DNA of 49,852 bases from an uncultured Ruminococcus sp. (GCA_964438725.1 CAYTLG010000001.1:1-49852); one strand, 5' to 3'; shown: positions 12,625 to 33,346, counted from the first letter of the stretch. The notes: generated from the sequence alone by a model not told the origin. Numbers and translations: made by a program.

Positions 12625-12658
12625 AAAGCTGATATCGCTTCTTTAAAACAATACAAAA

Positions 12659-12705
12659 CCCCCCTGAGTAATCTCTTTTACGGAGACTATTCAGGGGGAT
12701 TTTTT
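12659..12705. terminator. bidirectional intrinsic terminator
   Basis: CCCCCTGAGTAATCTC ... GAGACTATTCAGGGGG hairpin with two mismatches, flanked by an A-run and a T-run. It lies between convergent genes ending at 12624 and 12744. Confidence 0.8.
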
Positions 12706-12743
12706 ATGAAGTTTTTACGCTTCTATTGATTGCTTACAGGCAA

Positions 12744-13802
12744 TTACTGAGCTGTAAGACCGGAGGATTCGATACCCTGAACGATGTACTTCTGACCGAA
12801 GAGGTAGAGGACAATCAGGGGAGCGATGATAAGGATACCTGCGGTGTTATTGATAGCGGCAGTATAGAGTGCCTGACCTGCATACTGTGTATCAAGCGAC
12901 TTAGGAATCTTAATGATATCGGGAAGCAGCTTGTTACCGGCTGTGGTGAAGAACAGATCGGTATAGAAGTTATCGGTCCACTGCCAGCAGAAGGAGAACA
13001 TGAATACTGTTACCATCATTGTTACGGACAGAGGAAGGATAATGCTGATGAATGTTCTGAATACACCTGAGCCATCGAGGTATGCGGATTCTTCAAGTTC
13101 ATCGGGGAGGTTGCGGAAGAACTGACGGAGCATGAAGATGAACAGACCGTTCTTATATGCAAGACCTGTGAACGAGAGGATGTAAAGCGGGAAGTTGGTG
13201 TTGATCATGTTAATGGATGTTTCGCCGCCTGTAATGTTGATTGCATCAATTACACCACCACCGAGGAACTTCACGATGTTAAGAATATCGAAATATCTGA
13301 ACTTCATGAAGAGGGAGAGCTGGAGAGTTGAATGCGGAACTACCATCGTGAAGATTACGCAGAGGAAGAGGAGCTTGTTACCCTTAAACTTGAACTTTGC
13401 GAAACCGTAAGCGATGAAGCAGCAAACGAAGGTCTGGATAAGACCACAGGAGAGCGAAAGGATGAATGTATTGAGGAGAGCCTCAAAATATCCGTTATCC
13501 GTGATGATCGCCTTATAAGTATCCAGTGTCGGATGCTTAGGAATAAGTCTTACCGTAACGTCAACGAAGTCTTCGGGAGCCATGAAGGAGGAAGAAATCT
13601 TCGAGAAGAACGGGAAGAGGATTACGTAAGAGATACCGAGGAGGAGAAGGAATCTGAACAGATACCAAACTACCTTCTTCACGGTATAGAGGTTAATGAG
13701 CTTTGCCTTAACTCTATCCCAGAACGGTGTACGTTCGAACTCAACTCTGATTTTGTTCTTGGTTTCTTTTGTTACCTTAGGTGCTGTCTGTGCGTTGTTC
13801 AT
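12744..13802 (-). CDS. carbohydrate ABC transporter permease (MalG-like, extended)
   Basis: 352 aa with six or more hydrophobic segments. The EAA loop reads LPDELEESAYLDGSGVFRTFISIILP. It is the last gene of the operon. Confidence 0.85.
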   Translation of the reverse strand: MNNAQTAPKVTKETKNKIRVEFERTPFWDRVKAKLINLYTVKKVVWYLFRFLLLLGISYVILFPFFSKISSSFMAPEDFVDVTVRLIPKHPTLDTYKAIITDNGYFEALLNTFILSLSCGLIQTFVCCFIAYGFAKFKFKGNKLLFLCVIFTMVVPHSTLQLSLFMKFRYFDILNIVKFLGGGVIDAINITGGETSINMINTNFPLYILSFTGLAYKNGLFIFMLRQFFRNLPDELEESAYLDGSGVFRTFISIILPLSVTMMVTVFMFSFCWQWTDNFYTDLFFTTAGNKLLPDIIKIPKSLDTQYAGQALYTAAINNTAGILIIAPLIVLYLFGQKYIVQGIESSGLTAQ

Positions 13803-13820
13803 AAATCATATCCTCCTTTC

Positions 13821-14822
13821 TTAGTCTTTTCTCTGATAGAATACGAATGCACTGAGAAGTCCCGATACAGCTGCGATGAAGAGGATAACTATAAGGAAGT
13901 ACATCCAAGACATTGCAGATGAAAGTACGTTACCGTCTGCCTGTTCGTATACTGAGGAGATATACGCCATAACCCTGTTATCGGATGACGTAAATGCGTC
14001 GATAATTGTGTAAATGGTATTTACGAGAATCTGAGGGCTTACCATCGGGAGTGTGATCTTCCAGAAGGTTTCCCAACCGGACGCACCGTCGATAGAGCAG
14101 GATTCGTAAATAGCGGGGGAGATTGACTGAAGTGCGGAGAGGAAGATAAGCATCTGTACACCGCAACGGTTTACGATATTGAAGATGTTGTTTACCATCT
14201 GAACAACGTATTCAACAACTTCAGTACCGATCATCATGTTATCGAAAAGTCTTTCAACGTCGAGAACTGATACGATTTCAGTCGCAGTCGAGGTCTGGCC
14301 TGAACCATCGTCGATACCGCTTGAGGATTCCATGTAAGAGGAAAGTGTGTTGGAGCTATCAATCTGAGCGATAAGACCTGTTGTAAGAATAACGGGGATG
14401 AAGAATATCGCACGGAATGCTGCACGACCTGCTATCTTCTGGTTAAGGATGATAGCAACGAAGAGGGAGAACAGAACGATTGACGGAATGTCAAGGACGA
14501 GCTGTTTAAGACCGCTTACGAGAGTCGTTACATAGCTTGTATCAACGAACAGTGCATCTGAGTAGTTATCCCAGCCTACGAATGTGAGCTTATAACCACC
14601 ACCGACGAGAATGTCGATTTCGTTGAAGGAGTATCTTATGGAGTCAAAGATAATGGGAAGGTAGATGAGTACAAAACCGAGGAGGAAGGGGAGAATGAAT
14701 ATCCAGCCCGCTCTAGCTTTCTTAACATCAAGAGACGCACCGCGTTTTCTCTTTTTACCGGGAGCATCGACCTGAATCTTCTGCTTTTTTCCGCCTTTTC
14801 CGGCATCAATATTTAAGTTCAT
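13821..14822 (-). CDS. sugar ABC transporter permease (MalF-like) with basic N-terminal tail
   Basis: 333 aa. The EAA loop reads SPAIYESCSIDGASGWETFWKITLP. The N-terminal tail is Lys-rich. Confidence 0.85.
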   Translation of the reverse strand: MNLNIDAGKGGKKQKIQVDAPGKKRKRGASLDVKKARAGWIFILPFLLGFVLIYLPIIFDSIRYSFNEIDILVGGGYKLTFVGWDNYSDALFVDTSYVTTLVSGLKQLVLDIPSIVLFSLFVAIILNQKIAGRAAFRAIFFIPVILTTGLIAQIDSSNTLSSYMESSSGIDDGSGQTSTATEIVSVLDVERLFDNMMIGTEVVEYVVQMVNNIFNIVNRCGVQMLIFLSALQSISPAIYESCSIDGASGWETFWKITLPMVSPQILVNTIYTIIDAFTSSDNRVMAYISSVYEQADGNVLSSAMSWMYFLIVILFIAAVSGLLSAFVFYQRKD

Positions 14823-14840
14823 TTATGCACTCCCCTTTCT

Positions 14841-17800
14841 TTAGTCTATTCTTACGAAGCCGAGGCCTGCGATTGTGTAGGTCTGACCATCGTATTCAAC
14901 TGTGATATCGAATGAGTTGTAGTTGAGGATGAAGTTTACGCCACCTTCGTATTCAACACGAACAACAGAGCCGATCGTTGTCTTATACTTATCGGGAACA
15001 ACAACTTCTTCTTCTTCTTCAACTTCGATTTCTTCACCGAATTCGTTGACGTTACCTGCGGTTTCGTCTTCGTCTTCGTCTTCAGCATCTGTATCTGTTT
15101 CAGTTTCATCTGTTTCAGTTTCATCTGTTTCAGGTTCAGTTGCTTCTGTTGTCTCATCTGTTACAGTATCAGCTGTATCGGCAGGTTCTGTTGTATCGGG
15201 AACAGGAGTACCATTGAGACGTGCCTTGAGTCTTGCTGCTCTTTCTGCCTTGAGCTTTGCTTCTGCCTCTGCTTCTGCTTCTGCTTCGAGAGCTTCTTCT
15301 TCAGCAAGGCGGTCAGCTTCAACTTCGTCTGCATCGGGAACACGTTCTGCGTCCATGAATTCGTGGTCAACGATGTAAGAGGTCTGGAGATCCTTGATTG
15401 CATCATTGAGAACGGTGTAATACTTCGCTACGTCATCCTTCCAGATATCGTAGGATACGGAGTAGTACTTGGAGAGGCTATTGTCTTCCTTGAGTTCGCT
15501 TGTGTTCTGGTAGGAGAGGATGAAGTACATTGCCGCACCGTTTTCGATAGCAGAGAGGATGGACTCATTGATGTCACCTTCCATGTTTGTAGCGGAACCT
15601 GTGAATACCTTAGAACCGTGGTATACCATACCGAGGAAAGGTATAGACTGTGAAGCCTTGGAGTTACCGGAGGACTTAAGAGATGCCTTGAGGATAACGT
15701 CAGCATACTTGATAGCGTAAGCGTTACCGCCTTCGATCATTACGCTGTTGTAATCTTCGTCAATTGCAGCAAGGATATCCATAGTGAATTCCTTGTTGTC
15801 TTCTCTGTGGTACGGTTCATCTTCGTCAAAGTCGGAGTTGAGGTCTGTACCGAGAGTTGTTACTGCGATCGCATCGTTACCATATTCGAGATACTTATCT
15901 GCGAAATAGGAGTAGAGGGATTCAAAGTAAGAGGGAGAAATTGCGAGGGAGAAGCTTCTGTCGAACGACTGTGTAGCAGCGTCATAAGCACGTCTGGTTG
16001 TGTAACGGTCGTCGATAGTGCGGACTGCGTGCTTTCTGAGGGAGATACCGTCATTGAAGCCGCTCATATGCATATAAGCGAAGTCGAAGTCAGGATATAC
16101 ATCAAAATCGTTTTCAGCTGCATAGGATACGAGGTCACTGAAGCCATCGTTGCCGCCGAGAACCTTAGTCCACTTGAGCTGGTGAGGATATTCAGGACGC
16201 ATACCGCCGTTAGCATAGCCTGTGAGCTTGAAGTTCACGTTGCCTACGCCGAGTTCCTTAAGTTCGGTATACATTGTCTTGATATCTTCAAATGTTGTAA
16301 GAGGAGTATCAACGAGTACGGGGAAGGACATTACACGTTCAGTTGTTTCGATAGAACCGAATGTTTCAACGTAGAGCGGGATATCAGCCTTAACGTCTGC
16401 GTCTGTGAACTTTGTGATGTCACCCTTAGCTGTGAGGTAGTCACGGTAAGCAGTAGCCATACCTGTCCAGTCAGCTTTGTAGTAATCTTCTACACCATAT
16501 TCTTCGGCAAGTCTTGTGTCGGAGAGGAATGTGTACTGGATACGGTAGCTTCCTGTGTACTTTCTCTTGGATGTAACAGTCCATGTAGCGTTACCGCTGA
16601 CAGAGATTGAATCCGCAAGGTTGTATTCGTCGGACGGACGAGGTGTGAACATTGCGTATACTGTGTTATAGGGGTGGAGTGAACCGCCGCATACTGCCAT
16701 AAGCTTTGCAAGTGAGTCACCCTCTGTGATGATTGCAAGGAAACCGGAGTTTGTTGTAACTGTTGTATCAGGTTCAACAACTATTTCAGGCATTGTTGCA
16801 CTTGCGGGACCTGTATACCTTTCGCCGTTAGCTTCAGCTTCTGCCTTTGCTGCGTCGATTTCAGCCTGTTCAGCGTCGAACTGTTCCTGAGCAAGAGCTT
16901 CTGCTGCGGACTTAGCATCTGCTGCCTTAATGAGAGACATTTCCTTCGCATATTCAGTAACGATACCGAAGTAAGGCATTCTCATAGCTTCAGAGTGCTG
17001 ACCGTCGATTTCATGGTAAGCGTAGTCAGAACCGTACATTGTGCCGGCAATGTTTACGGACTTACCCTTGAAGTCTTCGTATCTGATGATGGCACCGGAA
17101 CCATCGGGGATTACTGAGTAACCGTTGTTTTCATTGCTACCTGCACCGAAGTAAGGAAGAATGTTAACGGTCTTGAACTGATATGTGGATTCGTCGAATT
17201 CGATACCGTTTGCGGGAAGTCTTACTTCAAGACCGTTCTCGTTAAGGGTATATTCGAGGCTCATACGGAATCTCGGCGGAGCAGCGTCAGCACCGGTATA
17301 GTTGGTGATTTCGTGGTCGTAGTCGAGTTCTTCATATGTGTAGCTGGGGCAGAATGTCTTAATGATTGTTTCAAGCTCACGAAGCTCTCTTGCCTTGATG
17401 TCAGGGTCACATACGTAAACTGCCATTTCAAGGGTGATCGGGAACTTAGCCTGCATTTCCGCAACGCCTCGTTCTGTAAGAGATTCATCGTCCTTATCCT
17501 TCTTGGTGTAGAAGGATACGAGCTTCTGATAGTACCAGTCATCTTCGACCTGGGAAAGGATGAGTTCTTCAAAACGCTCAACCTTAATCATTCTCGGTAC
17601 AAGACGTGTGGTCTGCTCTTCACCGAGGATGTATTCGCAACGGATACCGCCTTTGATGTTCTTCTTTGTTATCTGACCTCTGAGAGCTGCTTCCTTGTAG
17701 CTGTTCATCGACTTCTGTACTTCGTTTTCGAGGTATGTGATGGTGAGCTGGGAAAGGAGCTCCTGCTTTGTTGCATCGGAGATGGTCTGATAGCCGGAGT

Positions 17801-18086
17801 TGATATCATAGGGGTTTGAGAAGAGAACTTCTCCTGTGCTTGTCTTTACAAGTGCAAATTCACCTGTGAATTCCTCATAGTAGAGCTGGAATCCATATGC
17901 TTCCTTGCACAGTATCATGTCGGCGAGCTTTTCTTCGGGTGTTGCATATACTTCCTGGAGGTAGTTTATAATGGGGTCACCATTTTCATTTACCTTATCT
18001 GCATATGCGGCATCTACGGAAACCACAAGGGAACCAAGAAGCATAACCAGAGTCAAGAACGCTGATATAATTCTTTTTGTCTTCAT
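14841..18086 (-). CDS. large secreted protein of unknown function (recalls DUF5696-type proteins; possible TIM-barrel glycan-processing enzyme) with acidic low-complexity linker
   Basis: 1081 aa. Signal peptide MKTKRIISAFLTLVMLLGSLVVSVDAAYA. The central segment KELGVGNVNFKLTGYANGG...YPDFDFAYMH looks like a (beta/alpha)8 glycosidase. A C-terminal EAEAEA / ETDETETDETETD linker precedes a 45-aa beta-rich tail. The family name is from memory, not from a search. Confidence 0.75.
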   Translation of the reverse strand: MKTKRIISAFLTLVMLLGSLVVSVDAAYADKVNENGDPIINYLQEVYATPEEKLADMILCKEAYGFQLYYEEFTGEFALVKTSTGEVLFSNPYDINSGYQTISDATKQELLSQLTITYLENEVQKSMNSYKEAALRGQITKKNIKGGIRCEYILGEEQTTRLVPRMIKVERFEELILSQVEDDWYYQKLVSFYTKKDKDDESLTERGVAEMQAKFPITLEMAVYVCDPDIKARELRELETIIKTFCPSYTYEELDYDHEITNYTGADAAPPRFRMSLEYTLNENGLEVRLPANGIEFDESTYQFKTVNILPYFGAGSNENNGYSVIPDGSGAIIRYEDFKGKSVNIAGTMYGSDYAYHEIDGQHSEAMRMPYFGIVTEYAKEMSLIKAADAKSAAEALAQEQFDAEQAEIDAAKAEAEANGERYTGPASATMPEIVVEPDTTVTTNSGFLAIITEGDSLAKLMAVCGGSLHPYNTVYAMFTPRPSDEYNLADSISVSGNATWTVTSKRKYTGSYRIQYTFLSDTRLAEEYGVEDYYKADWTGMATAYRDYLTAKGDITKFTDADVKADIPLYVETFGSIETTERVMSFPVLVDTPLTTFEDIKTMYTELKELGVGNVNFKLTGYANGGMRPEYPHQLKWTKVLGGNDGFSDLVSYAAENDFDVYPDFDFAYMHMSGFNDGISLRKHAVRTIDDRYTTRRAYDAATQSFDRSFSLAISPSYFESLYSYFADKYLEYGNDAIAVTTLGTDLNSDFDEDEPYHREDNKEFTMDILAAIDEDYNSVMIEGGNAYAIKYADVILKASLKSSGNSKASQSIPFLGMVYHGSKVFTGSATNMEGDINESILSAIENGAAMYFILSYQNTSELKEDNSLSKYYSVSYDIWKDDVAKYYTVLNDAIKDLQTSYIVDHEFMDAERVPDADEVEADRLAEEEALEAEAEAEAEAKLKAERAARLKARLNGTPVPDTTEPADTADTVTDETTEATEPETDETETDETETDTDAEDEDEDETAGNVNEFGEEIEVEEEEEVVVPDKYKTTIGSVVRVEYEGGVNFILNYNSFDITVEYDGQTYTIAGLGFVRID
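14995..15350 (-). repeat. in-frame short tandem repeats encoding an acidic/Ala-Glu linker
   Basis: 15-nt unit GTTTCAGTTTCATCT x2.3 (about 15096-15135), hexamer CGTCTT x3 (about 15065-15083) and GCTTCT/GCCTCT hexamers (about 15259-15290). All are multiples of 3. Confidence 0.8.
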
Positions 18087-18107
18087 ATCTTATCTCCTTC
18101 TCTCTGT

Positions 18108-20240
18108 TTACAACCGGTAAGTGATTTCTTCGATAATATTAGTAACGAAGCTTACTATCTTTGCCATAAGGCTGGAGAACAGTATGCCTATGAACATGAT
18201 GAATGCCATACCTACTACTGTTGCAACGCAAGTGATGATGTTCTTACCTGCGGAGTAGTCGTGTGTTACCATCATTCCAAAGACTACGAGAAGTCCGAGC
18301 CAGATATACGCAAATGTTACGAGCATTGTAACTACGCCGCCCTCAGATGCTGTGAGGAAGTTTGTTGCGATAGTTACGGGAATCATGATAAGCGGGAGAG
18401 GTGTGAGAGCGTAGCAAGCTGCAATGAAAATGTCGCTCATGCTGCCTTCACCTTCGAACAGAGTCGTGAGACACCAGTTAGCTATTACCCAGAGGAGCAG
18501 AGGTGCAAGAACGGCTGAGAACGAAGTCATGATGTTGAATGCTGTGGACGGACGAGGACTGAAGATATAGCCCTGACCGATAGTATTGTAGTAATATGCG
18601 AGGATAGTAATTACGAGGATAACAAGGGCACTTCTTACAGAACCACGCTTTTCATGCTTGAGGTCCCAGAAACCGTCAAACGGGTGGAGCATTACATGGA
18701 AAGCATAGAGAAGTTCTTCCTTGAGGCTCTTTCTACCGAGCTTGAGTGCGGTTCTCTTATTAACCTTAGCAGCGAAGCCGAAGAACTTAGCAAGAAGGAT
18801 GCAGATGACAACGATTACGATCGGAATCATCCAGAAGTACTTGTTAGCCCATTCCTTACGGACTTCCTTGTAAGAGAGAGAATAGTTTTCTGTTTCGTAC
18901 GCGTACTTGAAATATTCCATAGATTCTTCGTACTTACCCTGACGGTAGAGTGCCTTACCTATCTGAATATAAGCCGTGTCGAAATTGTTGTTTCTCTTGA
19001 GAATTTCAGTCCAGTCTTCGATTGTCATATCGTAGAGACGGTTGTTGTTATGCTCGATAGCTGCAAGGAGGAGGTCGCCGTACTCTGTTCTTCTGTAAAC
19101 AACGAAGTTATCGTTTGTCTTATCGAGGAGGAGTATCTTTGAGCCCTGGTAAGCTATTGCTTCAACAGAGTCTACGTTACCGATCTGGTTACCCTTATCA
19201 CCGAATGTGAAGAGGAGGTCACCGTTTTCGTTATAAGTAAATACCTTAGAACGCTTTTCGTCGATGATGGACCATGTTCCTTCGGGACCTACAGCTGCGT
19301 CGATAATCTTGGATGCACCTGTAATGTTCGCAGTGGACATATTTGTAACTCTTACTTCACCTGACGGAGGATAGAAGCCGTTACGCTTCATAACGTCGGA
19401 ACCGGAGGCATTGAGCTTCTTAACAGGAGCGTAGTCAGAAGACTTGGACTTTCCGTTAATAGCACCCTGCTGGTCGGATTCGGAGATGGAGGAAGTTGTT
19501 ACATAGATGAAGTTATCAGAGTCAATTGTGATGTTATTGAACTCTGTGGAGATATATTCTTCTGAATATTCTCTCTGTTCCTGTGTCTGGATGTTTCTCC
19601 AGAGGATTTCGAGGGCACTGATTGTAACCTTCTGAGCACCGATGAATCCGAAGAAGTCACCGTTGTCATTAAGAACGATAATACCCTGGTATGTAGTGGA
19701 TGATACTACGAAGATTCGACCGTACTGGTCAACTGCACAAGCTACGGGCTTGTAGATGGAGCCTTCTTCAAAAAGGTTAGATTCGGGCTTGCCGATAATT
19801 TTAATGTAATTACCTTCTGTGTCGAACTTTACGATACGGTTGTTGTCGGTATCGCAGACATAGATGAAATCTTTATTTACGAAAACGCCCGAAGGATTTG
19901 AAAATGTATCGGGAACACCGTGTTCGTTTGTAAAGGACTTGATTTCAAAGAGGAACTTATAATATCTGTCAAGTACGATAACGCTTGAGGAAGCCGCACT
20001 TACGATATAAACTCTTTCATCAGGACCAACGAACAGGTCTCTGGGGTCGTCAAGAGCTGTTGTGAGACCCATATAAGTTGAGTCAACAACACGGTCCGGC
20101 ACATATGCTGCGGGAGAGGTAAGAACCTGACCACCTGCGGAATATGTGTAAGTTGCGTAAGGGGTAGCCGCTGACACAACAGAGGGAAGGAGCATCATGA
20201 CGCACAGAGCGATAAGGAGTACGCGTATAAATTTCTTCAT
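18108..20240 (-). CDS. NHL-repeat beta-propeller / TPR-like / Yip1-type multi-pass membrane fusion protein
   Basis: 710 aa. Signal peptide MKKFIRVLLIALCVMMLLPSVVSA. NHL-type repeats such as IYVCDTDNNRIVKFDTEGN and RIFVVSSTTYQGIIVLNDNG. TPR-like GKALYRQGKYEESMEYFKYAY. A TM at aa 469-490, then HPFDGFWDLKHEKRGS plus about 5 TMs (Yip1-like). Confidence 0.8.
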   Translation of the reverse strand: MKKFIRVLLIALCVMMLLPSVVSAATPYATYTYSAGGQVLTSPAAYVPDRVVDSTYMGLTTALDDPRDLFVGPDERVYIVSAASSSVIVLDRYYKFLFEIKSFTNEHGVPDTFSNPSGVFVNKDFIYVCDTDNNRIVKFDTEGNYIKIIGKPESNLFEEGSIYKPVACAVDQYGRIFVVSSTTYQGIIVLNDNGDFFGFIGAQKVTISALEILWRNIQTQEQREYSEEYISTEFNNITIDSDNFIYVTTSSISESDQQGAINGKSKSSDYAPVKKLNASGSDVMKRNGFYPPSGEVRVTNMSTANITGASKIIDAAVGPEGTWSIIDEKRSKVFTYNENGDLLFTFGDKGNQIGNVDSVEAIAYQGSKILLLDKTNDNFVVYRRTEYGDLLLAAIEHNNNRLYDMTIEDWTEILKRNNNFDTAYIQIGKALYRQGKYEESMEYFKYAYETENYSLSYKEVRKEWANKYFWMIPIVIVVICILLAKFFGFAAKVNKRTALKLGRKSLKEELLYAFHVMLHPFDGFWDLKHEKRGSVRSALVILVITILAYYYNTIGQGYIFSPRPSTAFNIMTSFSAVLAPLLLWVIANWCLTTLFEGEGSMSDIFIAACYALTPLPLIMIPVTIATNFLTASEGGVVTMLVTFAYIWLGLLVVFGMMVTHDYSAGKNIITCVATVVGMAFIMFIGILFSSLMAKIVSFVTNIIEEITYRL

Positions 20241-20251
20241 TGTTTTCCTCC

Positions 20252-21124
20252 TTAGTCTTTCATACCGCTCGAACCCATTGTTTCAATGATGTTAGACTGA
20301 GATACAACGAATACGAGGATCGGTACTATCATCATTACAACGGTCGATGCAGCTGTCGCACCTGCACGGGCAACGCCGCCGGCTGTGATCTGGCTGATTG
20401 CATAGTTAAGAGTCTTGAGCTGTTCGGAATAAATGAACGAGGACTGACCGGAGTTCCACAGACCCTGGAAGGAGTACACGATAAGTGTGAGCCAACCGGG
20501 CTTAACCATAGGCATTGCGATCGACCAGAATGTTCTGAGTTCGGACGCACCGTCAAGTCTTGCGGATTCAAGTACTTCAGTAGATACGTTTGATTCCATG
20601 AACTGCTTCATGAGGTAAAGACCGAGAGTGGAACACCACGCAGGTACGATTACGGCGAGATATGTATCGATCCAGCCGATCATAGAGAGTGTGATGAAGT
20701 TTACGATACCGGTTACGGTTGCTGTAAACATAAGGGACTTCTGAATAATCCAGAAGAAGCCTTTTGCTCCGGGGAAGTCGATCTTTGCGAGTGCGTACGC
20801 ACAAATGGATGCGAGAACGAGGTTACCGAATGTACCGCCAACGGAAATGAGGACGGTATTGAAGATATATCTTGAGAACGGTACCCATGAGTCAGACATC
20901 AAGTTGAAGAGGTCTGAGAAGTTTGTAAGGGTCGGGTTTACAACATAGAAACGGGGCGGGAAGTAGAACAGCTCGTTCAGGGGTTTAAGTGCCTGAATGA
21001 TGGTGTAATACATCGGCAGGAACATGAATATACCGAATATGGTGAGGATTACTGTGATACCGACGTCACCGCCGACCGATCTGTTAAGAACGACCTGATG
21101 TTTTCTTGTTCTTAATTTTTTCAT
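20252..21124 (-). CDS. carbohydrate ABC transporter permease (MalG-like)
   Basis: 290 aa. The EAA loop reads EVLESARLDGASELRTFWSIAMP. A TAATG stop/start overlap with the upstream permease lies at 21122-21126. Confidence 0.88.
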   Translation of the reverse strand: MKKLRTRKHQVVLNRSVGGDVGITVILTIFGIFMFLPMYYTIIQALKPLNELFYFPPRFYVVNPTLTNFSDLFNLMSDSWVPFSRYIFNTVLISVGGTFGNLVLASICAYALAKIDFPGAKGFFWIIQKSLMFTATVTGIVNFITLSMIGWIDTYLAVIVPAWCSTLGLYLMKQFMESNVSTEVLESARLDGASELRTFWSIAMPMVKPGWLTLIVYSFQGLWNSGQSSFIYSEQLKTLNYAISQITAGGVARAGATAASTVVMMIVPILVFVVSQSNIIETMGSSGMKD

Positions 21125-22068
21125 TACTGACCCACCTTTGATATAAGTTTCGTTACGAGGACGTTAGATCCAATCATCATAAGGAAGAGGATGAAGGAAA
21201 TCGCAGATGCGTAACCGACTTCCCAACGGTTATTCTGATACTCTTCAAGATGGTGAGTAAGTGTATAACCAACGTAGTCTGTCGGGGGGTTACCTGCAAG
21301 GGCTGTAACGATACCGCCGAATCCGAATGAACCTGTGATTGCGAGAATAGCACCGAACATCAACTGCGGCTTCATGGAAGGCAGTGTGATGTACCAGAGC
21401 TCCTGCCATCTGTTCTTGATACCATCGATAGAACCTGCTTCGAAGAGGCTTCGGTTGATACCCTGAAGACCTGCGATGAAGGAAAGGAAGGATGTACCAA
21501 GTGATGTCCAAAGAGCAACTACGATACAGAGCGGCATGATGTAAGAGGCATTCTGGAAGAACTTGATAGGTGAGTCGATGACACCCATATCAATGAGAAG
21601 ACCGTTTACGATACCGTACTGGTCGGATGAGAAGAGGTATGTCCAGATGAGGTATACGTTACCTGCAATGGACGGTGCGTAGAAGATAAGTGTTACGAAT
21701 GCACGGATCTTCGGGCTAAGCTCGTTAATGAACCATGCAACGATGAACGAGATAATGTAGGATGCGGGACCTGTTACCGCTGCGAAGATAAGAGTGTTCT
21801 TGAGAGCGGTAATGAAGAGGTCGTCGTCGAGGAACAGCGTGATGTAGTTATCCATGAAGACGAACTTCGGGAATTCAAGCATGTTGAACGACGTTAAGCT
21901 GAGAACCAGCGAAAGTGCGACCGGAATGATCGTGAAGATGAAGAAGAGGATCATAAACGGAGCTATCATGAAATACGCCGTTTTATTTCTCTTCACGAGG
22001 AACCATGTCCACTCTGCTTTAGTCATTTCTCTACGTGTCTTGACTTGTTTTTCAGTGTTGTTTGACAT
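21124..22068 (-). CDS. sugar ABC transporter permease (MalF-like)
   Basis: 314 aa. The EAA loop reads NRSLFEAGSIDGIKNRWQELWYITLP. Confidence 0.88.
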   Translation of the reverse strand: MSNNTEKQVKTRREMTKAEWTWFLVKRNKTAYFMIAPFMILFFIFTIIPVALSLVLSLTSFNMLEFPKFVFMDNYITLFLDDDLFITALKNTLIFAAVTGPASYIISFIVAWFINELSPKIRAFVTLIFYAPSIAGNVYLIWTYLFSSDQYGIVNGLLIDMGVIDSPIKFFQNASYIMPLCIVVALWTSLGTSFLSFIAGLQGINRSLFEAGSIDGIKNRWQELWYITLPSMKPQLMFGAILAITGSFGFGGIVTALAGNPPTDYVGYTLTHHLEEYQNNRWEVGYASAISFILFLMMIGSNVLVTKLISKVGQ

Positions 22069-22133
22069 GAACTCTCTCCTTTGTCAGAATTTTTTGTTTC
22101 AGTCAGTTTTTTCTACCTTAATATATACTGAAA

Positions 22134-25100
22134 TTAATCAAGGTAGGATTCAAGAGCGTTTGCTGCGTCGGTGAGGTAGGACGAAAGCTGTGCCATAGTT
22201 GTATCGGATGTGTTAAGTCCGGACGCTGCACTTCTCAGCTCTTCGATGTTTTCGTTTTCGATAGCTGTGATAACATTCGCAAGGGATGTCTTCTGTGCGT
22301 CGTCAAGCTCGTCTATAAGCTCTGTTGCCTGACCGAGACGTTTAGATGCGAGAGTCTGACCGATTTCAAGAGTTTCAAGGTCGAACTCAGTTCTCTTTCT
22401 GATGATTTCCTTATTAATAGTGTTGATATATCCGAGGAGTGAATCAACGGGGTCTGCCTTATTGTTATATGCGTTGAGGAATGCGAAGCTTGTGTAACGA
22501 CCGAGGATGTAAGAGCCGGGGTAGTTTGTGATAGCGGAGGTGTTATCCATCTGCTTCATAAGCTGGCTGTATTCTCTGGAGGTCCAGGGAAGTTCTTCGA
22601 GGGCTTCCATGTTAGCTGTTGCATTCTTAGCTGCGGGACCGAGGATAGCAACAAGTTCGTTGGAGTAGTCTACCTGGAACTTGGAGTCTGTGTACCACTT
22701 GAGGAATTCCCAAGAGGATGCGATATCCTTAGCACCTGCCATGATAACGAGAGCGGATGTACCGGACATTGTTGTGTTGTTTACGGTACCGTCGGCCTGA
22801 ATTGTTCCGGGAACAGGACCGAATTCCCAAAGACCTGCGATTTCTGTTGCGAAGATTACGATGTTGTTATATGCTGTATAGTTCTGGATTGCTATCGGCA
22901 TTTCACCTGTTCTGAAACGGTTGGCGAAGTCGTAGTCAACGGAGAGAGAATACTGAGTAAACATATTACACATCTTCTCGAACGCTTCAAGAGACTTGTT
23001 GGAGTCGAGGTTGATTCTCATACCATCGTCAGCCCAAAGTTCTTCACCCATCTGGTACATGAATGTCTGGTAGTTCTGAGTCATACCGATTTCCATGTTA
23101 TTGAACTGAAGGATAGGAATGAGGGCGAGGAGGTCATCCCATGTTTCGGGAACGTCAACTCCAAGCTCGGAGAGGATATCTGTACGGTAGAACATCATAT
23201 CCCATGACTGTGTGTCGGGGAGAGCGTATGTCTTGCCGTAGAGTTCAAGGGGAATCATTGCAGCATCTGTGAATCTTGAGGTTACTTCGTGGTAGTCGGA
23301 GAATATCTCACGCATCTTTGCGTTGTACTCAAGAGCTTCAGCGTCGTCATCAGCGGAGTCTTCATATGCTTCGGGGTTGATGGCGATAACTGCGGAACGG
23401 ATAGCGTACTGAATCGGGTCAACGCCTGTACCGGGAAGAGCTACTTCAGGACCAACACCTGCAAGAACGGAGGGGAGGAGTGTACCGCCCGCAACGAGCT
23501 TAAGTGTAGCATTGATGCCGGACTTAGGAGCGAAGTCGTTATCCATGAGGTTACGGATGATCTGAGCCTGGTCACGACCGGTTGTTACCCATACTTCAAT
23601 GGATCTATCGGATTCGTTTTCGCTTGAAGAACCACCGAGTGAGTTATAGTCGGTGTAGAAGGAAGCTACGAACTGTCTCAGCTCATACCAGAGAGACTGG
23701 AAGAAGTTTCCGTCTGCCTTGGGCTTAGATGCGGATGCGGGCTGAACATTGATGTAGTCTATCTCAAGGGGCTGGTTCTTTGTACTTGCAACCCAGTCAC
23801 CGAGTGTACTTACCTGGTTTTTAAGGTTTGAGAGGTTCTTTGCGATTTCGTCCTCGTCTGTACCCATGAGACGGCAGTAGCGAGCTGCTGTTTCAAGTGT
23901 AGCGGAGTTCTGGGACTTTACGTTAGCCATGCCTTCGATATAGTCAACGATGTCCATGAGCTTATTAGCCTGAACAACGAGGTCTTCTACAACGTCGGGA
24001 AGAACTCGACCGAAACCGTAGTCACGGTATTTGTCGGGGGAAGGACCTGTGAGCTTGAGGATTTCGAGGTAGTCGTTGTTGATTGAATCGACTATTTCGG
24101 AAACCTGACGTACTACGGTACCCATTTCACCGAGAGTTACTTCAAATTTAATTGTATAATGGCCGGGTTCAAAGTAGAACTGGAATGTATCGGCGCCGTT
24201 TCCGATAGCTTCTACCTGCCAGCTTGTATCGTAATTGAATTTAGCGTAGTTCGCTTCTTCAAACGGAACTTCGTCGTTGATGTATATTCTACGGGAGGTA
24301 TACATACCGGCCTGTTCGTTCTGTCTGTAACGCATTACGATCTCGTAAAGACCTGCGGTTTCAACGTCAAATTCATATTCGATCCACTGACCAACAGTCT
24401 GCCATTTTTCGCTACCTATTGTATTCAGTCTGATCTTAGCGGGGTCCTGCGGCTCTGTAATCGCTGACTTACGGTCATAAATCGGATATACAGTATAGTC
24501 GGAGGTTGCGGAAGGTGTTTCACCGTCGATATGTATTACGGAAGTCGTACTAGCTTCGGACTTACCTGCAATATATTCTTCGTAGGAGATTTTGTCTTCG
24601 TAGGGGAAAACTGAAATCTCATTTATTACCATAGATTCACGGACACCTTCGAGTGTAATTACGTTTTCGCCTGCTTCGAGATAGAACTCAAAGGGGTTAG
24701 CGTAATAACCGTTGGAGTCGATGAAAGTATATTCCTTCCATTCTTTCTGAACGTAAGATGTGGGACGGAGTTCATTTCCGTTAGCATCCATCTCAAATCT
24801 GCCGTCGATGTAATTATTCTTCCACGTTTTCTTCATAAGAAGGTAACGTGCTTCGCTGAACGGAACCTCACCGTTGATGTAAAGCACACGTTCAATAGAG
24901 TTTGTCTTGTCTGTAACAGAGCAATACGTGATCTTTATTGCATAAAGACCTGCTTTAGGTACATTTACGGTCCATGACACCTTACCTGCGTCGCTAACGA
25001 GGAGTGACTGACCGCTCTTACCTTCATAATCGTTCTCTACGGATACTTCAGCTGTGGTTTCATCTGCGAGATAATCTACAGCCTTAACAGTAACGGCACC

Positions 25101-25304
25101 AGTTCCGCGAACGGCACCCTCATGTTTTGTGACGTATTCTTCGTATGAGATAGATTTAAAGGTTTCGCTGATTTCCTGGAGAGTCGTTTTCACATCGATT
25201 TTCTCGGCCGCTTCATCCGCAAAAATGGGAGACACGAGAGCTGATGTTGTCATAAGAACCGACAGAGCCAGGCTAAGCAGCTTTTTGCTTGTGGTTTTTC
25301 TCAT
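22134..25304 (-). CDS. giant extracellular solute-binding protein with two N-terminal CBM-like modules
   Basis: The start is set at ATG 25304 (MRKTTSKKLL) after AGGAGGA; the tracked MQEEGS extension lacks an RBS. There is a signal peptide with no lipobox Cys. Duplicated beta-sandwich modules span ORF-track aa 58-243 and 244-397. A family-1 SBP-like region follows, then a helical tail. Confidence 0.85.
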   Translation of the reverse strand: MRKTTSKKLLSLALSVLMTTSALVSPIFADEAAEKIDVKTTLQEISETFKSISYEEYVTKHEGAVRGTGAVTVKAVDYLADETTAEVSVENDYEGKSGQSLLVSDAGKVSWTVNVPKAGLYAIKITYCSVTDKTNSIERVLYINGEVPFSEARYLLMKKTWKNNYIDGRFEMDANGNELRPTSYVQKEWKEYTFIDSNGYYANPFEFYLEAGENVITLEGVRESMVINEISVFPYEDKISYEEYIAGKSEASTTSVIHIDGETPSATSDYTVYPIYDRKSAITEPQDPAKIRLNTIGSEKWQTVGQWIEYEFDVETAGLYEIVMRYRQNEQAGMYTSRRIYINDEVPFEEANYAKFNYDTSWQVEAIGNGADTFQFYFEPGHYTIKFEVTLGEMGTVVRQVSEIVDSINNDYLEILKLTGPSPDKYRDYGFGRVLPDVVEDLVVQANKLMDIVDYIEGMANVKSQNSATLETAARYCRLMGTDEDEIAKNLSNLKNQVSTLGDWVASTKNQPLEIDYINVQPASASKPKADGNFFQSLWYELRQFVASFYTDYNSLGGSSSENESDRSIEVWVTTGRDQAQIIRNLMDNDFAPKSGINATLKLVAGGTLLPSVLAGVGPEVALPGTGVDPIQYAIRSAVIAINPEAYEDSADDDAEALEYNAKMREIFSDYHEVTSRFTDAAMIPLELYGKTYALPDTQSWDMMFYRTDILSELGVDVPETWDDLLALIPILQFNNMEIGMTQNYQTFMYQMGEELWADDGMRINLDSNKSLEAFEKMCNMFTQYSLSVDYDFANRFRTGEMPIAIQNYTAYNNIVIFATEIAGLWEFGPVPGTIQADGTVNNTTMSGTSALVIMAGAKDIASSWEFLKWYTDSKFQVDYSNELVAILGPAAKNATANMEALEELPWTSREYSQLMKQMDNTSAITNYPGSYILGRYTSFAFLNAYNNKADPVDSLLGYINTINKEIIRKRTEFDLETLEIGQTLASKRLGQATELIDELDDAQKTSLANVITAIENENIEELRSAASGLNTSDTTMAQLSSYLTDAANALESYLD

Positions 25305-25491
25305 AGAACCTTCCTCCTGCAAATTTTTGAGTGACCCCGATGACCGCCGGAACCACTCCTACGCCGCCCTATCCACAGTCGATAAAGCGGTTAATTATAA
25401 TGAAGGTTTTTTTATCGCAAACGGCATCTGAGACAAAAAAAGACCTTCCGGGAGTACACAAACGCACTTATCCCGATAATTATATGACATT

Positions 25492-25520
25492 ATAATAGCA
25501 TAATGCCACAAAAATGTCAA
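25492..25520 (-). promoter_or_regulatory. sigma-A type promoter of the seven-gene ABC operon
   Basis: On the minus strand: TTGACA (25520-25515), 17-nt spacer, TATTAT (25497-25492). The predicted 5' UTR is about 185 nt. Confidence 0.65.
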
Positions 25521-25975
25521 GCGTTCATCGTCGGTGGTAATGCACCTTTTACGACCATTTGATTGGAAAAAGAGCTGATTTTTCTTTTTCTGTTGAAGTT
25601 TATTTCATTCCGATTTATGTGGCTTTGATGTGACAGCGAGGAAAAGCGTAAACTCATGTAAGTAATTTTTACTGTTTATGTTTATTTTTTATTGTTTTGT
25701 GCGGTTTTAAGGTTGATTTTTTATTATTGAAATGGCGTGATTATTAACAAAAGGTGATGTTGTAAATTTTATTTACCGTTACAAACGTCATTGATAAAAG
25801 TTGGGAGTGACGGCAAAGTGACGGTGCGGGGGATTGATATGTGAAACTTGCACAAAAATTGAGGTCATTTTTCTACGCTTATACACAATGCACAAATTTT
25901 CAAGAAAACTGGAATTTCGTGAACAAAAGTGGTAAAATACTGGGAAATTTGCGGTTACCTCTATTGGGTCACCCT

Positions 25976-26104: not shown

Positions 26105-27352
26105 TCACGAAAACAGCTTCTCCCTCGCCGACGCAAGCATCAACTTCAACCTGTTCTCCTGGTTTACCGCAGATGCACCCGGGTCGTAGTCTATTGCTAC
26201 TATGTTCGCATCGGGATTTGCTTCCTTTATCGGCTTCATCATGCCCTTTCCACATATATGGTTCGGCAAACATCCAAACGGCTGAGTACATACAATGTTC
26301 GGTACTCCGGAATCTGCAAGCTCAAGCATCTCCGCAACAAGAAGCCATCCCTCTCCCATCTTCGTTCCGTAGCCTATGTAGTCCTTCGCAAGCTCAATGG
26401 TATGCTTGAACGGTGTAGCAGGTCTGAATGTTCCCTCTTTTTCAACCGCCTTTATCTGCTCTGCCTGTCTTGCACAGATGAAGTCAAGTCCTATCTTGTT
26501 TATCACGTGGGCAGCCTTGCCGTGACCGTAGAGCTTGTAGTCCATTACTCCGTTGTAGAAGCAGTAGTTGAAGAAGTCCGCAAGTCCGGGCATTACTACT
26601 TCCGCTCCCTCACGTACAAGGAACGACTCAAGCTGGTTGTTCCCGAGTGGTGAGAACTTGACGTAAATCTCGCCGACGATACCGACCTTGACCGCCTTAC
26701 GCTTTTCAACGGGGATAGCGGCAAAATCCTTGATTATGGCATCGTAGTTTTTTCTTACCTTTGAGTTTGAGATATGCTTATGTGTCAGCTCATCTACAAG
26801 GCGATCCGTCCACTTTTGACAGAGTGCATCTGCGTCGCCCTTGGTTTTCTCGTACGGGCGAACCTGATTTGCAAGAGACATCATGAGGTCACCGTAGAGA
26901 ACGCCGTACACCATTTTGTAGTAAAGTCCGAGTGAGTTTTTGAAGCCGGGATGGCTTTCGATTCCCGCAAGGCTGAGAGGCACTACGGGTACATACTCCA
27001 TACCGGCAGCTTTAAGTGCTTTTCTCATAAGTGAGACATAGTTTGAGGCACGGCAGCCACCGCCTGTTTGGAAGAGCATTACTGCTGTTTTATGTGGGTC
27101 ATACTTACCCGACATAAGTGCATCGAGGAGCTGACCTATAACCAGCACTGCGGGGTAACAGGTATCATTATGGACATATTTCAGTCCTGTTTCTGCAATC
27201 TGAGGTCCTGTTGTACGAAGAAGCTCCATTTTATATCCGTTAGTCTCGAATATTTGCTTCACAAGTGTAAAGTGGATAGGAAGCATATTCGGAATGAGGA
27301 TAGTATGGGTCTTTTTCATTTCCTCAGTGAATTTGACATAGTTTGTATTCAT
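26105..27352 (-). CDS. 2-hydroxyacyl-CoA dehydratase family protein (HgdA/B-like; DCCP-like)
   Basis: 415 aa. Cys motifs HNDTCYPAV, GGGCRASNY and CTQPFGCLPNH are characteristic of the family. It is paralogous to the C-terminal third of the upstream 998-aa protein. Confidence 0.8.
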   Translation of the reverse strand: MNTNYVKFTEEMKKTHTILIPNMLPIHFTLVKQIFETNGYKMELLRTTGPQIAETGLKYVHNDTCYPAVLVIGQLLDALMSGKYDPHKTAVMLFQTGGGCRASNYVSLMRKALKAAGMEYVPVVPLSLAGIESHPGFKNSLGLYYKMVYGVLYGDLMMSLANQVRPYEKTKGDADALCQKWTDRLVDELTHKHISNSKVRKNYDAIIKDFAAIPVEKRKAVKVGIVGEIYVKFSPLGNNQLESFLVREGAEVVMPGLADFFNYCFYNGVMDYKLYGHGKAAHVINKIGLDFICARQAEQIKAVEKEGTFRPATPFKHTIELAKDYIGYGTKMGEGWLLVAEMLELADSGVPNIVCTQPFGCLPNHICGKGMMKPIKEANPDANIVAIDYDPGASAVNQENRLKLMLASAREKLFS

Positions 27353-27398
27353 TTTGATTTTCTAAAATTATTTCTTTAATATACTTTATTTTTATAGT

Positions 27399-27454
27399 GA
27401 TTTGGGATTCCTAACACATTTTGGAAAACTAAAGTCCCCCTCAGCTTCAGGTGA
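27399..27454 (+). repeat. intergenic repeat family, copy B (right arm truncated at the stop codon of the upstream gene)
   Basis: GATTTGGGATTCCTAACACATTTTGGAAAACTAAAGTCCCCCTCAGCTTCAGGTGA. The core matches 14/15 at 27441-27455 and abuts the TAA (27455-27457) of the activase gene. Confidence 0.8.
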
Positions 27455-31530: not shown

Positions 31531-33171
31531 TCAGTTTGCGTTTTCGATAAGAGCGTTTACCTTTTCACGGAGGGTTTCAACGTAGTCCTCATCGTGGGGG
31601 TATTCGGAGAATGTAATCTCACCTCTCTCGTCAACAAGAGCAAGGACTGCCTCACGGCCGCAAAGTTCTTCTGCGAGGTCCATAGCACGTCTGTCCTGGA
31701 GAGCCATTGTGAACGCTTTCATGTGGAGTGTTTCGAGAGGCTGACCGTTTTCGCCGGGATATACTGCGAAGCAATCTCCTGCGGGAACCCAATATTCACC
31801 ATCGTTGATGAGGTAGGGGTCTATTGCACGTGTGGAGCCCTGGTCGTTATAGAAGTTATAGCCCCACTGGAGGAAGCCTACGATATGATACTTCCAGAAC
31901 TGGGCACCGATAACACGGGTTCTCTGTGAGGGCATAGCAACCATACGGTTTGAAACCTTGTATGTCTGTCCGCAGCAGTAGTAAGTCCAGAGGTTGGGAA
32001 CATTTGCTTCAATGAACGGTGCGATATGGTCGTTTGAGGGGATGGGGCATGACAAAGCTCCTGTCTGGTAGAACTCGAAGCTGGAAAGAGCATCCATTAT
32101 TGTATAGTCGGAGATGAGGTCGTATATCTGCTCTTTTGCCTTTGTATATGCTTCAAGGTGCTGGAGTGAGGGTTCATCGGAGATATGGTAGAGGCATCTG
32201 TCATCAACACCGAGACGCTTCATTTCGGCAATGAACGCTGTCAGGAAGGTACGAAGGAAGGTTTTATATTCATCGGAGAAAGCATCGGTTTCCCAGCCGA
32301 AGATACGCTTATATTCGCCATCGTCATATGCCATGATTTTAGGTGCATGGGCACAACCCCATTGTGTATAGAGGTGGGATATTTCAAAGTATTCTACGCC
32401 TGCTTCACGTGCGATTTCAACCCATTTAGCGAGCTTATCGAAGCCGAAAGCGTATTCGCCCTGTTCACGGTAAACGTCGATAAGCTGAGTTGTACGTCTT
32501 TCACCGCCTACCTGAGTATCGAGCGGAGGAGTAAAAACAGGTGTAAGTATTGTATTGATACCGTTCTTTACAGCAGTTTTCATGAAGTTTGAAATATATT
32601 CCCAGTGCTTATCATCAAAGGATTCGAGTCCGTAGTAGTTTGCGATACAGTCACAATGGAACCATTCTGTAACCTTCATGGTCTGTTTGGGGAGAGTTTT
32701 TGCAATAACGTGTACTGTATACTCTGCGGAATAGGTTTCGCCGCCCACGAAAGATACTTTGATTGTGTGGTCACCTGCTGCTGTATTTTCGGGTACAGTT
32801 ACAGTAACAAAGAGTGCTTTAAGCTGACCGTATGTAGCGAAAACGGTATTTCCGTTAGTGAGGTCACGGAGGAGGTCAGGATAAAGTCCGGGAGTTTTAC
32901 GGAGGAAGTAGTCATCTGAACCGGGGTAAGCGGGGTATCTTACAGGTACGGGTTCAACGAGACGTACTTTTACGTCGGGGAGATCTGATTCAACCTGAAT
33001 CTGATACCAGCCTCTGGGGGACTCATTGGGGTCATCGGTAGCGAAAGCTATCTGGAAGCAGACTTCTTCACCGAGAAGTGCGGATGAGGATGAGGATACT
33101 TTTTTGGATTCGATATTCTCATCGAGGAAGCATTTCTCCATTGCGGAGACAGTACGTAGGTGGAGTGCCAT
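31531..33171 (-). CDS. DUF4091 / GH123-like glycoside hydrolase family protein
   Basis: The start is set at ATG 33171 (MALHLRTVSAMEKCF) after GAAAGGAAAC; the tracked 19-aa Lys-rich extension is repeat-derived leader. The conserved stretch WFHCDCIANYYG...INTILTPVFTPPLDTQVGGERRTTQLIDV is typical of DUF4091 proteins, from memory. Confidence 0.75.
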   Translation of the reverse strand: MALHLRTVSAMEKCFLDENIESKKVSSSSSALLGEEVCFQIAFATDDPNESPRGWYQIQVESDLPDVKVRLVEPVPVRYPAYPGSDDYFLRKTPGLYPDLLRDLTNGNTVFATYGQLKALFVTVTVPENTAAGDHTIKVSFVGGETYSAEYTVHVIAKTLPKQTMKVTEWFHCDCIANYYGLESFDDKHWEYISNFMKTAVKNGINTILTPVFTPPLDTQVGGERRTTQLIDVYREQGEYAFGFDKLAKWVEIAREAGVEYFEISHLYTQWGCAHAPKIMAYDDGEYKRIFGWETDAFSDEYKTFLRTFLTAFIAEMKRLGVDDRCLYHISDEPSLQHLEAYTKAKEQIYDLISDYTIMDALSSFEFYQTGALSCPIPSNDHIAPFIEANVPNLWTYYCCGQTYKVSNRMVAMPSQRTRVIGAQFWKYHIVGFLQWGYNFYNDQGSTRAIDPYLINDGEYWVPAGDCFAVYPGENGQPLETLHMKAFTMALQDRRAMDLAEELCGREAVLALVDERGEITFSEYPHDEDYVETLREKVNALIENAN

Positions 33172-33185
33172 AGGTGTGGGTTTCC

Positions 33186-33346
33186 TTTCTTTCAATTCTT
33201 TCTTTGTTTTATTTTCTTTCTTCACCAATGAAGTTTGGGTTAAAGGGGGTTAGGGCTTCATTTAGGTAAACTAATGTCCATTCAGCTTCAGGTGAATCCC
33301 AATCCACGGAGGTATCCGGTAGGGTGAACGCCACCCTCAACCTACC
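33186..33346 (+). repeat. intergenic repeat family, copy C (long form)
   Basis: About 160 bp with the exact core at 33282-33296. The left end forms the purine-rich 5' leader of the DUF4091 gene. The right end, TCAACCTACC (33337-33346), contains the ddl stop codon. Confidence 0.88.

Follow-up and report, generated by a model that had tools for sequence, protein, structure and literature searches.

A stretch of 49,852 nucleotides from an uncultured Ruminococcus sp. (GCA_964438725.1 CAYTLG010000001.1:1-49852; the window in what follows) carries on its minus strand, at positions 12,744 to 25,304, a seven-gene operon that encodes a giant solute-binding protein (SBP), two pairs of ATP-binding cassette (ABC) permeases (1F/1G and 2F/2G), an NHL-TPR-Yip1 membrane protein and a secreted DUF5696 protein. 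This operon is not peculiar to one genome; we found it to be the invariant cassette of a large family. The cassette is a real, widespread and previously unstudied architecture, and with moderate confidence we read its seven genes as one functional unit, a multi-subunit CUT1-type machine for glycan capture, processing and import with two translocons. An earlier note, made from the sequence of the window, had described the operon and considered its functional logic not established. In agreement with this, full-text literature searches returned no mention of DUF5696 or PF18952.

Close loci were collected with a DUF5696 alignment, taking one genome per species and keeping the best 80, and their gene order was surveyed by tblastn with the seven window proteins. 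All 80 came from Clostridia or Oscillospiraceae metagenome-assembled genomes (MAGs) of gut and rumen. The order SBP, 1F, 1G, NHL-Yip1, DUF5696, 2F, 2G, on one strand, was found in every one of the 61 loci with enough flanking sequence; the remaining 19 end at contig edges and keep the order as far as their sequence reaches. The lowest identities in the close loci are 40% for DUF5696 and the binding protein and approximately 58-66% for the permeases. Wide distances between DUF5696 and 2F in some of them correspond to a longer DUF5696 protein (up to 1874 aa), with no gene inserted. The flanking genes are not conserved, and the commonest family among them occurs in 19 of the 80 loci. One locus, L018 (JAGARL010000319.1), is labelled Methanocorpusculum sp., and its cassette is bacterial and complete, with proteins 65-91% identical to those of the window. 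Its DUF5696 protein falls in one cluster with that of Oscillospiraceae MAGs, and the bin is almost certainly contaminated or mislabelled.

We also examined a small distant sample of 11 loci, chosen from hit lists blind to gene context. Two of them are annotated copies found by tblastn in a plasmid collection, with 25-28% DUF5696 identity. Butyrivibrio fibrisolvens pNP243 carries a histidine kinase and a response regulator, then a glycoside hydrolase (GH) of family GH43, an SBP (977 aa), two permeases, NHL, YIP1, DUF5696, two permeases and two further SBPs, and the Paenibacillus cellulosilyticus megaplasmid carries a UgpC-type ATPase, an SBP (986 aa), two permeases, YIP1 (719 aa), DUF5696 and two permeases. 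The same block was present in nine more distant loci, from P. mucilaginosus, Paenibacillus sp. 32O-W, Neobacillus kokaensis, Cohnella luojiensis and several MAGs, and the distant loci keep the order at approximately 25% DUF5696 identity. The neighborhood survey proposed in the earlier note, for the co-occurrence of NHL-Yip1 and DUF5696 proteins with doubled permease pairs, thus returned a single order in close and distant loci alike. The DUF5696 family comprises 4197 clusters at 50% identity (exhaustive search, E ≤ 1e-3), and the cassette is therefore common. The family is concentrated in gut and rumen Clostridia and soil Paenibacillaceae, and all sampled loci hold the same cassette, with seven genes in Clostridia and eight, including an ATPase, in Paenibacillaceae. 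In three Paenibacillus loci (L084, L085 and L093) the cassette is preceded by an aldo/keto reductase and followed by clusters in which ordinary binding proteins are interspersed among luciferase-like (LLM) flavin monooxygenases.

Reciprocal comparison showed all seven proteins to be 1:1 orthologous to their positional counterparts in Butyrivibrio and Paenibacillus. The identities to these two, in that order, were 52/41% for 1F, 59/36% for 1G, 40/34% for 2F and 43/28% for 2G among the permeases, and 36/27% for the SBP, 32-42/26% for NHL-Yip1 and 27/25% for DUF5696. The permeases and the Yip1 domain are the most conserved components, and the binding protein and DUF5696 the least. These results bear on the possibility that the operon holds two unrelated ABC importers and two unrelated genes as mere chance neighbors. 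Sugar ABC loci are often adjacent in Firmicutes, and the permease pairs are mutually just 23-25% identical (in pairwise BLAST, 24.5% for 1F vs 2F and 23% for 1G vs 2G), as such an origin would allow. However, an order and orientation that do not vary among the 61 complete close loci or any of the distant loci sampled, across two bacterial classes, the 1:1 orthology of all seven components in Butyrivibrio and Paenibacillus, and gaps of 1-65 bp with no credible internal terminator make a chance association very improbable. A recent tandem duplication of the permease pairs was also considered; it is ruled out by the same 23-25% identity and by separate orthologs in other classes. Because the identity between the pairs is low and their orthologs are 1:1, the doubling must be ancient and both pairs have been retained.

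The permeases had been described as two MalF-like and two MalG-like proteins with EAA loops, and this assignment was borne out. BPD_transp_1 scored above the Pfam cut-off in all four (E = 6.4e-14 for 1F and 1.2e-13 for 2G), their best NCBIfam similarities were to UgpA, UgpE and MalG (1F to UgpA, 1G to UgpE), and the EAA coupling loops are kept in all four across every lineage examined. Pfam searches of each protein, which the earlier note had recommended, confirmed every domain call.

Neither an ATPase nor a regulator is encoded in the operon, as previously claimed. A search for the Walker A and LSGGQ motifs detected no ABC ATPase open reading frame (ORF) in the 50-kb window, and a Pfam scan detected no regulator among the immediate neighbors of the operon. 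The same motif search found no cassette ATPase in the 80 close loci, only two unrelated opposite-strand ORFs of 267-270 aa. In four Paenibacillaceae/Neobacillus loci, a MalK-type ATPase gene (369-372 aa; ABC_tran, OB_MalK and TOBE_2) lies immediately upstream of the giant SBP. Firmicute CUT1 systems usually receive their ATPase in trans, from a gene encoded elsewhere. The clostridial cassettes would likewise draw a MalK/MsmK-type ATPase in trans, and this reading, which agrees with the orphan MsmK-type ATPase called for in the earlier note, is supported by the cis-encoded MalK/UgpC-type ATPase of the orthologous cassettes. Since there is one ATPase gene per two permease pairs and the EAA loops are kept everywhere, both pairs are probably functional translocators sharing one ATPase.

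The giant binding protein matched SBP_bac_1 (Pfam E = 6.5e-15, 56 bits against a cut-off of 26 bits), and its sequence matches in the PDB were sugar-binding proteins such as GacH. Its layout consists of a type-I signal peptide, two CBM35-like beta-sandwich domains, a helical linker, the SBP_bac_1 fold and a C-terminal helical tail. The N-terminal 400 residues are formed by the two repeated beta-sandwich domains, which are conserved in Butyrivibrio and Paenibacillaceae too. Searched as a single sequence, the protein reached 23.1 bits for CBM_35 against a Pfam cut-off of 28 bits, and Golvesin_C was also sub-threshold. When a family profile of the N-terminal part was compared with the PDB, the second domain resembled the CBM35 of cycloisomaltooligosaccharide glucanotransferase (CITase) at E = 1.2e-8, and the first resembled the CBM35 structure 2vzp more weakly (E = 0.008); the profile also matched the CBM35 module 2w47 more weakly than that of CITase. 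The description of the protein as bearing carbohydrate-binding modules (CBMs) is thus supported at the profile level and falls below the Pfam cut-off for the single sequence.

Its size of about 1056 aa and the absence of a lipobox agree with the earlier description: the signal peptide is of type I (…SPIFA/DE) with no Cys lipobox, and a lipobox is likewise absent from 59 of 60 orthologs. The same holds for the orthologs of DUF5696 (79/80) and NHL-Yip1 (74/75). We found no second binding protein in the 50-kb window by tblastn, and the flanks of the 80 close loci show no recurrent binding-protein family. Of the 9 complete distant loci, 6 have a conventional lipoprotein binding protein (450-540 aa) encoded as a direct neighbor of the cassette; these proteins are mostly 24-31% identical to one another and all have classical lipoboxes. 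Consequently, the claim that four permeases share one binding protein stands for the window and may not hold for the whole family. An ordinary receptor may serve one of the permease pairs in other lineages, and in this genome a gene for such a receptor may lie elsewhere.

The secreted protein had been described as DUF5696-like with a TIM-barrel-like center, and both parts of this description proved right. The Pfam match to DUF5696 was unambiguous (E = 4.4e-141), and a single-sequence search of the PDB gave no match. A shallow alignment of 13 close homologs gave an AlphaFold model with a predicted local distance difference test (pLDDT) score of 48, which was discarded; the final AlphaFold2 model, built from 112 more diverse sequences, covers residues 28-940 at a pLDDT of 89 and a predicted template modeling score (pTM) of 0.84. 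It comprises an N-terminal domain, a beta-sandwich, a (beta/alpha)8 barrel and a C-terminal beta-domain. Foldseek placed the GH129-like Zobellia 3,6-anhydro-D-galactosidase first in the PDB (5opq and 8rzk; E = 1.7e-25, TM-score 0.65 per target), with NagBb at E = 5e-20. The top matches were all GH129 or GH129-like (E = 1.7e-25 to 1e-18, target-normalized TM-scores 0.63-0.70), followed by GH101, GH31 and GH36. The family profile detected the same relatives in the PDB by sequence (8rzk, E = 5e-9; 5wzq, E = 8e-8), with matches in the N-terminal domain, the barrel and the C-terminal beta-domain. On the fold model and the family profile together, DUF5696 is a distant homolog of GH129 and GH101.

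Five polar residues, D328 (PDGSG), D354 (YGxD), D752 (LNSDF), N834 and E848, are conserved in 29 members down to approximately 22% identity, and N788 and H823 are retained in most of these members. D752 lies just past the predicted barrel strand 4, occurs in 27 of these 29 diverse members, and has a spacing that fits the nucleophile of GH129 (Asp435 of NagBb, Asp486 of Zobellia DagB; PMC5698469). The GH129 acid/base is Glu478 in NagBb and Glu517/Glu531 in DagB (PMC5698469). The candidate acid/base of DUF5696, E785, is Glu or Asp in the window's clade and in Butyrivibrio, and Ser, Thr or Asn in Paenibacillus and others. Judged by its modelled fold and these residues, DUF5696 is probably a retaining glycosidase, a putative assignment.

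In the clade of the window, the C-terminal beta-domain is interrupted at 14841-15340 by a coiled coil and an acidic low-complexity insert rich in Asp, Glu and Thr. The insert varies in length, the protein ranging from approximately 1000 to 1874 aa between orthologs (L068, L073, L077), and the extra length has no other Pfam match. Very long DUF5696 homologs (1600-2500 aa) showed no fusion to Yip1, a binding protein or a permease, and no significant Pfam match in their additional sequence.

A different role for this protein has to be weighed, namely that DUF5696 is a catalytically dead, GH129-derived glycan-binding receptor or lid of pair 2, with NHL-Yip1 as its anchor, and that the giant SBP serves pair 1 only. 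Its gene always stands immediately upstream of 2F/2G, just as the SBP gene stands upstream of 1F/1G, and the window has no second binding protein, nor does one recur in the flanks of the 80 close loci. The change of E785 to Ser, Thr or Asn in many distant members would also suit a receptor, and the variable hydrolase families flanking the cassette mean that other enzymes may supply catalysis. Nevertheless, D328, D354, D752, N834 and E848 are kept to approximately 22% identity, as an active site would be, and the lipoprotein binding proteins adjoining 6 of 9 distant cassettes could serve pair 2. We know of no type-I ABC importer with a glycosidase-fold receptor. The acid/base varies within GH129 too, between NagBb and the Zobellia enzyme, both of which are active (PMC5698469). 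All in all, we consider the receptor role unlikely, and retain the putative glycosidase as the preferred reading of DUF5696.

The remaining component had been described as a signal-peptide NHL propeller fused to a Yip1-like domain with five transmembrane segments. Pfam matched Yip1 (PF04893) with E = 1.6e-15 and 57.8 bits against a cut-off of 28.6 bits, over profile positions 1-171 of 173, and NHL with 25.9 bits against a cut-off of 20 bits; TPR was matched as well. NHL domains of known structure (Thin, TRIM71 and PknD) matched at E = 8e-14 to 1e-6 over several repeats. Hydropathy analysis revealed a signal peptide, one transmembrane segment at 471-489 and five between 537 and 686. The 710-aa protein accordingly runs from the signal peptide through an extracellular NHL beta-propeller, TPR-like helices and one transmembrane segment to the five-segment Yip1 domain, which agrees with the earlier description.

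In six distant loci NHL and Yip1 are encoded by separate adjacent genes, and the NHL part keeps its own transmembrane helix. Such a pattern, fused or adjacent, is expected of interacting partners. As NHL-TPR-Yip1 is the only large membrane-integral component apart from the permeases, while a monoderm must retain its non-lipidated proteins, we propose that it acts as a scaffold holding the extracellular subunits. Some distant DUF5696 members are anchored on their own by an N-terminal transmembrane segment or a lipobox.

Clues to the substrate came from the distant loci. The enzymes encoded beside the cassette there are GH43; GH26, GH113 and GH9; GH30 and GH35; GH95, GH10 and an esterase; or GH2 and GH38, and LacI-type regulators or AraC-type response regulators are often nearby. 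This gene context points to nutrient glycans, with a specificity that would differ between lineages, and such lineage-specific specificity fits the binding protein and DUF5696 being the least conserved components.

Alternatively, the cassette might recycle or sense envelope or exopolysaccharide fragments that stem from the cell itself. A VanY-type D-Ala-D-Ala carboxypeptidase and housekeeping genes flank it in the window and in 18 related loci, genes of the NamZ family (exo-MurNAc-ase) follow it in one distant locus, and no regulator or catabolic genes lie beside the window operon. The VanY neighbor, however, is convergent, lies past the terminator and occurs in just 18 of the 80 loci, whereas the distant cassettes adjoin hydrolases of plant and host glycans and LacI or AraC-type response regulators, which are typical of nutrient loci. 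CBM35-like domains, too, are typical of polysaccharide foraging. We therefore consider a role in the envelope improbable and nutrient glycans the better supported substrate. In the window itself, a gene with a GH123-family catalytic domain (Pfam E = 1.7e-102) lies at 31531-33228 on the minus strand, 6 kb upstream of the operon. The CAZy family GH123 includes beta-N-acetylgalactosaminidases. Together with the GH129-like fold of DUF5696, which is related to alpha-N-acetylgalactosaminidases, this neighbor hints at host glycans that contain N-acetylgalactosamine (GalNAc).

The analysis establishes which genes the cassette contains, their domains and folds, an invariant synteny, 1:1 orthology of all seven components and an ATPase encoded in cis in a sister lineage. 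Beyond this, we infer a physical complex, an enzyme activity, a kind of substrate and a pairing of receptor and permeases that would make the cassette one machine. The secreted giant receptor would use its two CBM35-like domains and its binding-protein fold to bind a glycan, either a polymer or a long oligomer. At the cell surface DUF5696, as a distant GH129/GH101-like (beta/alpha)8 enzyme, would trim or cleave the bound glycan, and the products would enter by two permease heterodimers, 1F/1G and 2F/2G, each of which would couple to an ATPase dimer via its EAA loops. The NHL-propeller/TPR/Yip1 scaffold in the membrane would hold the two secreted, non-lipidated subunits at the translocons, and a MalK/MsmK-type ATPase encoded elsewhere in the genome would power the importer.

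Four points weigh against this mechanism. The hydrolases neighboring the cassette differ widely, which is awkward for one fixed enzymatic step unless the specificity of DUF5696 has diverged. The window itself offers no clue to the substrate of the operon because its flanks are housekeeping genes. E785 is not kept in the Paenibacillus branch and D752 is assigned by spacing only, so DUF5696 could be non-catalytic. Finally, an extra lipoprotein binding protein lies beside many distant cassettes, and the pairing may differ from one receptor for two translocons.

The features of the operon are listed in Table 1. The seven minus-strand ORFs, the single promoter and the bidirectional terminator reported earlier were all located at the same positions.

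Table 1. Genes and signals of the operon, in the order of transcription (positions counted from the first nucleotide of the window).
Feature	Position	Strand	Details
Sigma-A-type promoter	25492..25520	-	TTGACA, 17 nt, TATTAT, TG extended -10
5' leader, 187 nt	25305..25491	-	Hairpin ~25475-25449, U-run to ~25435
Giant solute-binding protein gene	22134..25304	-	1056 aa; ORF open to TTG 25322
Permease 1F, MalF/UgpA-like	21124..22068	-	314 aa, 6 transmembrane segments; EAA loop EAGSIDG
Permease 1G, MalG/UgpE-like	20252..21124	-	290 aa; EAA loop ESARLDG
NHL-TPR-Yip1 membrane protein	18108..20240	-	710 aa
Secreted DUF5696 protein	14841..18086	-	1081 aa
Permease 2F	13821..14822	-	333 aa; EAA loop ESCSIDG
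Permease 2G	12744..13802	-	352 aa; EAA loop ESAYLDG
Bidirectional intrinsic terminator, common to the operon and a convergent VanY-family gene	12659..12705	.	From sequence and RNA fold

The likeliest start of the binding-protein gene is the ATG at 25304, located 8 nt past an AGGAGG, which gives the 1056-aa product. The intergenic gaps, in gene order, are 65 bp, a 1-nt TAATG overlap of the 1F stop and the 1G start, and 11, 21, 18 and 18 bp, and no credible terminator was found between the seven genes. The promoter is the top sigma-70-like site of the region, with 11 of 12 matches, and is conserved in orthologous loci. At the other end, the terminator fold (12650-12715) has a stability of -29.3 kcal/mol (z = -7.4), which none of 200 shuffles equaled, and is flanked by an A-run on one side and a U-run on the other.

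The promoter and the first ~50 nt of the transcript (25435-25522, minus strand) are far more conserved in orthologous loci than the neighboring intergenic DNA. The block 25522-25470, which holds the promoter and the start of the transcript, is 80-90% identical across these loci, and the DNA around it is not alignable. Downstream of the -10 element stands a conserved ATGNCATATAA block, followed by the leader hairpin and then by the U-run. The leader as a whole folds with z = -2.8, and the arms of its hairpin, judged by eye, vary between loci yet stay complementary. Neither the operon nor the leader had an Rfam match. The conserved region could combine an operator with a leader attenuator, and might account for regulation with no regulator encoded in cis.

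No conserved flanking regulator was found beside the 80 close loci. In 19 of them, a 320-aa gene of the ROK family lies divergently approximately 0.9 kb upstream of the cassette (e.g. L004:972-1934), and the window has its own 320-aa ROK-family gene at 41323-42285 on the plus strand, 16 kb from the operon. The divergent upstream gene of the 19 loci was considered as a conserved flanking regulator and rejected, since at 320 aa and with a ROK match over the whole protein it is likelier a kinase than a repressor; it may be a sugar kinase for the imported product.

The operon is immediately flanked by housekeeping genes, which encode subunits of pyruvate:ferredoxin oxidoreductase, an rRNA methylase, a carboxypeptidase of the VanY family and a BcrAD/DUF2229 activase. 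The genes directly upstream, at 26105-30451 on the minus strand, encode a 998-aa fusion of a BcrAD/BadFG ATPase with DUF2229 and a DUF2229-like protein of 415 aa, both predicted to activate CoA-dependent dehydratase-type enzymes. They have no relation to the cassette, and their position next to it is not conserved.

If the cassette is one machine, it would be a major unstudied route of complex-glycan acquisition in fiber-degrading Firmicutes. The known architecture of type-I ABC importers would then be widened by a doubling of the translocons, an accessory subunit of the Yip1 family and an enzyme-like subunit as an integral part, and DUF5696 would stand beside GH129 and GH101 as a candidate new glycoside hydrolase family. 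The cassette is directly testable in cultured carriers, namely Butyrivibrio fibrisolvens D1, Paenibacillus mucilaginosus, P. cellulosilyticus and Neobacillus kokaensis.

Among known systems, the cassette shares with CUT1 importers (E. coli MalEFGK2, and MsmEFG or RafEFG with MsmK or MsmX) an SBP_bac_1 receptor and MalF/UgpA-like and MalG/UgpE-like permeases with EAA loops. Unlike them, it has a second permease heterodimer, and NHL-TPR-Yip1 and DUF5696, both large and obligatory, stand between its permease pairs. Its receptor is 2.5 times the normal size, carries two CBM35-like domains and is not a lipoprotein, whereas the receptors of monoderm CUT1 systems are usually tethered by a lipobox. 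The gene for the MalK/MsmK subunit of CUT1 systems has no cis counterpart in the window or the 80 close loci and is found in cis in the orthologous cassettes of Paenibacillaceae and Neobacillus.

DUF5696 resembles GH129 (Bifidobacterium bifidum NagBb alpha-N-acetylgalactosaminidase), Zobellia DagB and the GH101 endo-alpha-N-acetylgalactosaminidases in its succession of beta-sandwich, (beta/alpha)8 barrel and C-terminal beta-domain. It differs from GH129 and GH101 enzymes in being only 11-13% identical to them, in forming a separate Pfam family with an acid/base that is not identifiable, in its extra N-terminal, helical and acidic inserts, and in always occurring inside an ABC transporter operon.

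A literature search on Yip1 with an ABC transporter, NHL or glycoside hydrolase returned nothing relevant except YknW of the Bacillus YknWXYZ system, a Yip1-family membrane protein proposed to work with an ABC transporter (PMC4887032). As with YknW, the Yip1 protein of the cassette is a bacterial polytopic protein encoded with ABC transporter genes. YknWXYZ, however, is an exporter-type, MacB-like peptide-resistance pump and YknW has no NHL propeller (PMC4887032), whereas the Yip1 domain of the cassette comes with a large extracellular propeller and accompanies permeases of the type-I importer kind.

The broadest parallel is to the Sus-like utilisomes of Bacteroidota and to Gram-positive polysaccharide loci, in which glycan-binding modules, a surface glycosidase and a transporter are likewise co-encoded for capture, cleavage and import. 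The proteins of the cassette are unrelated to those of Sus-like utilisomes, with no SusC/SusD and no outer membrane, and the enzymes of known Gram-positive polysaccharide loci are not fixed parts interleaved with a doubled permease set. A bolder and distinctly more tentative proposal would make the cassette a new, hitherto unrecognized class of Gram-positive glycan utilisome, a stable complex at the cell surface in which a double-translocon ABC importer might have the GH129-like enzyme, the CBM receptor and the NHL/Yip1 scaffold as stoichiometric subunits. Such a complex would physically link the capture and cleavage of a polysaccharide to the import of two product classes, and the cassette would be a functional analog, in monoderms, of the SusCD utilisome.

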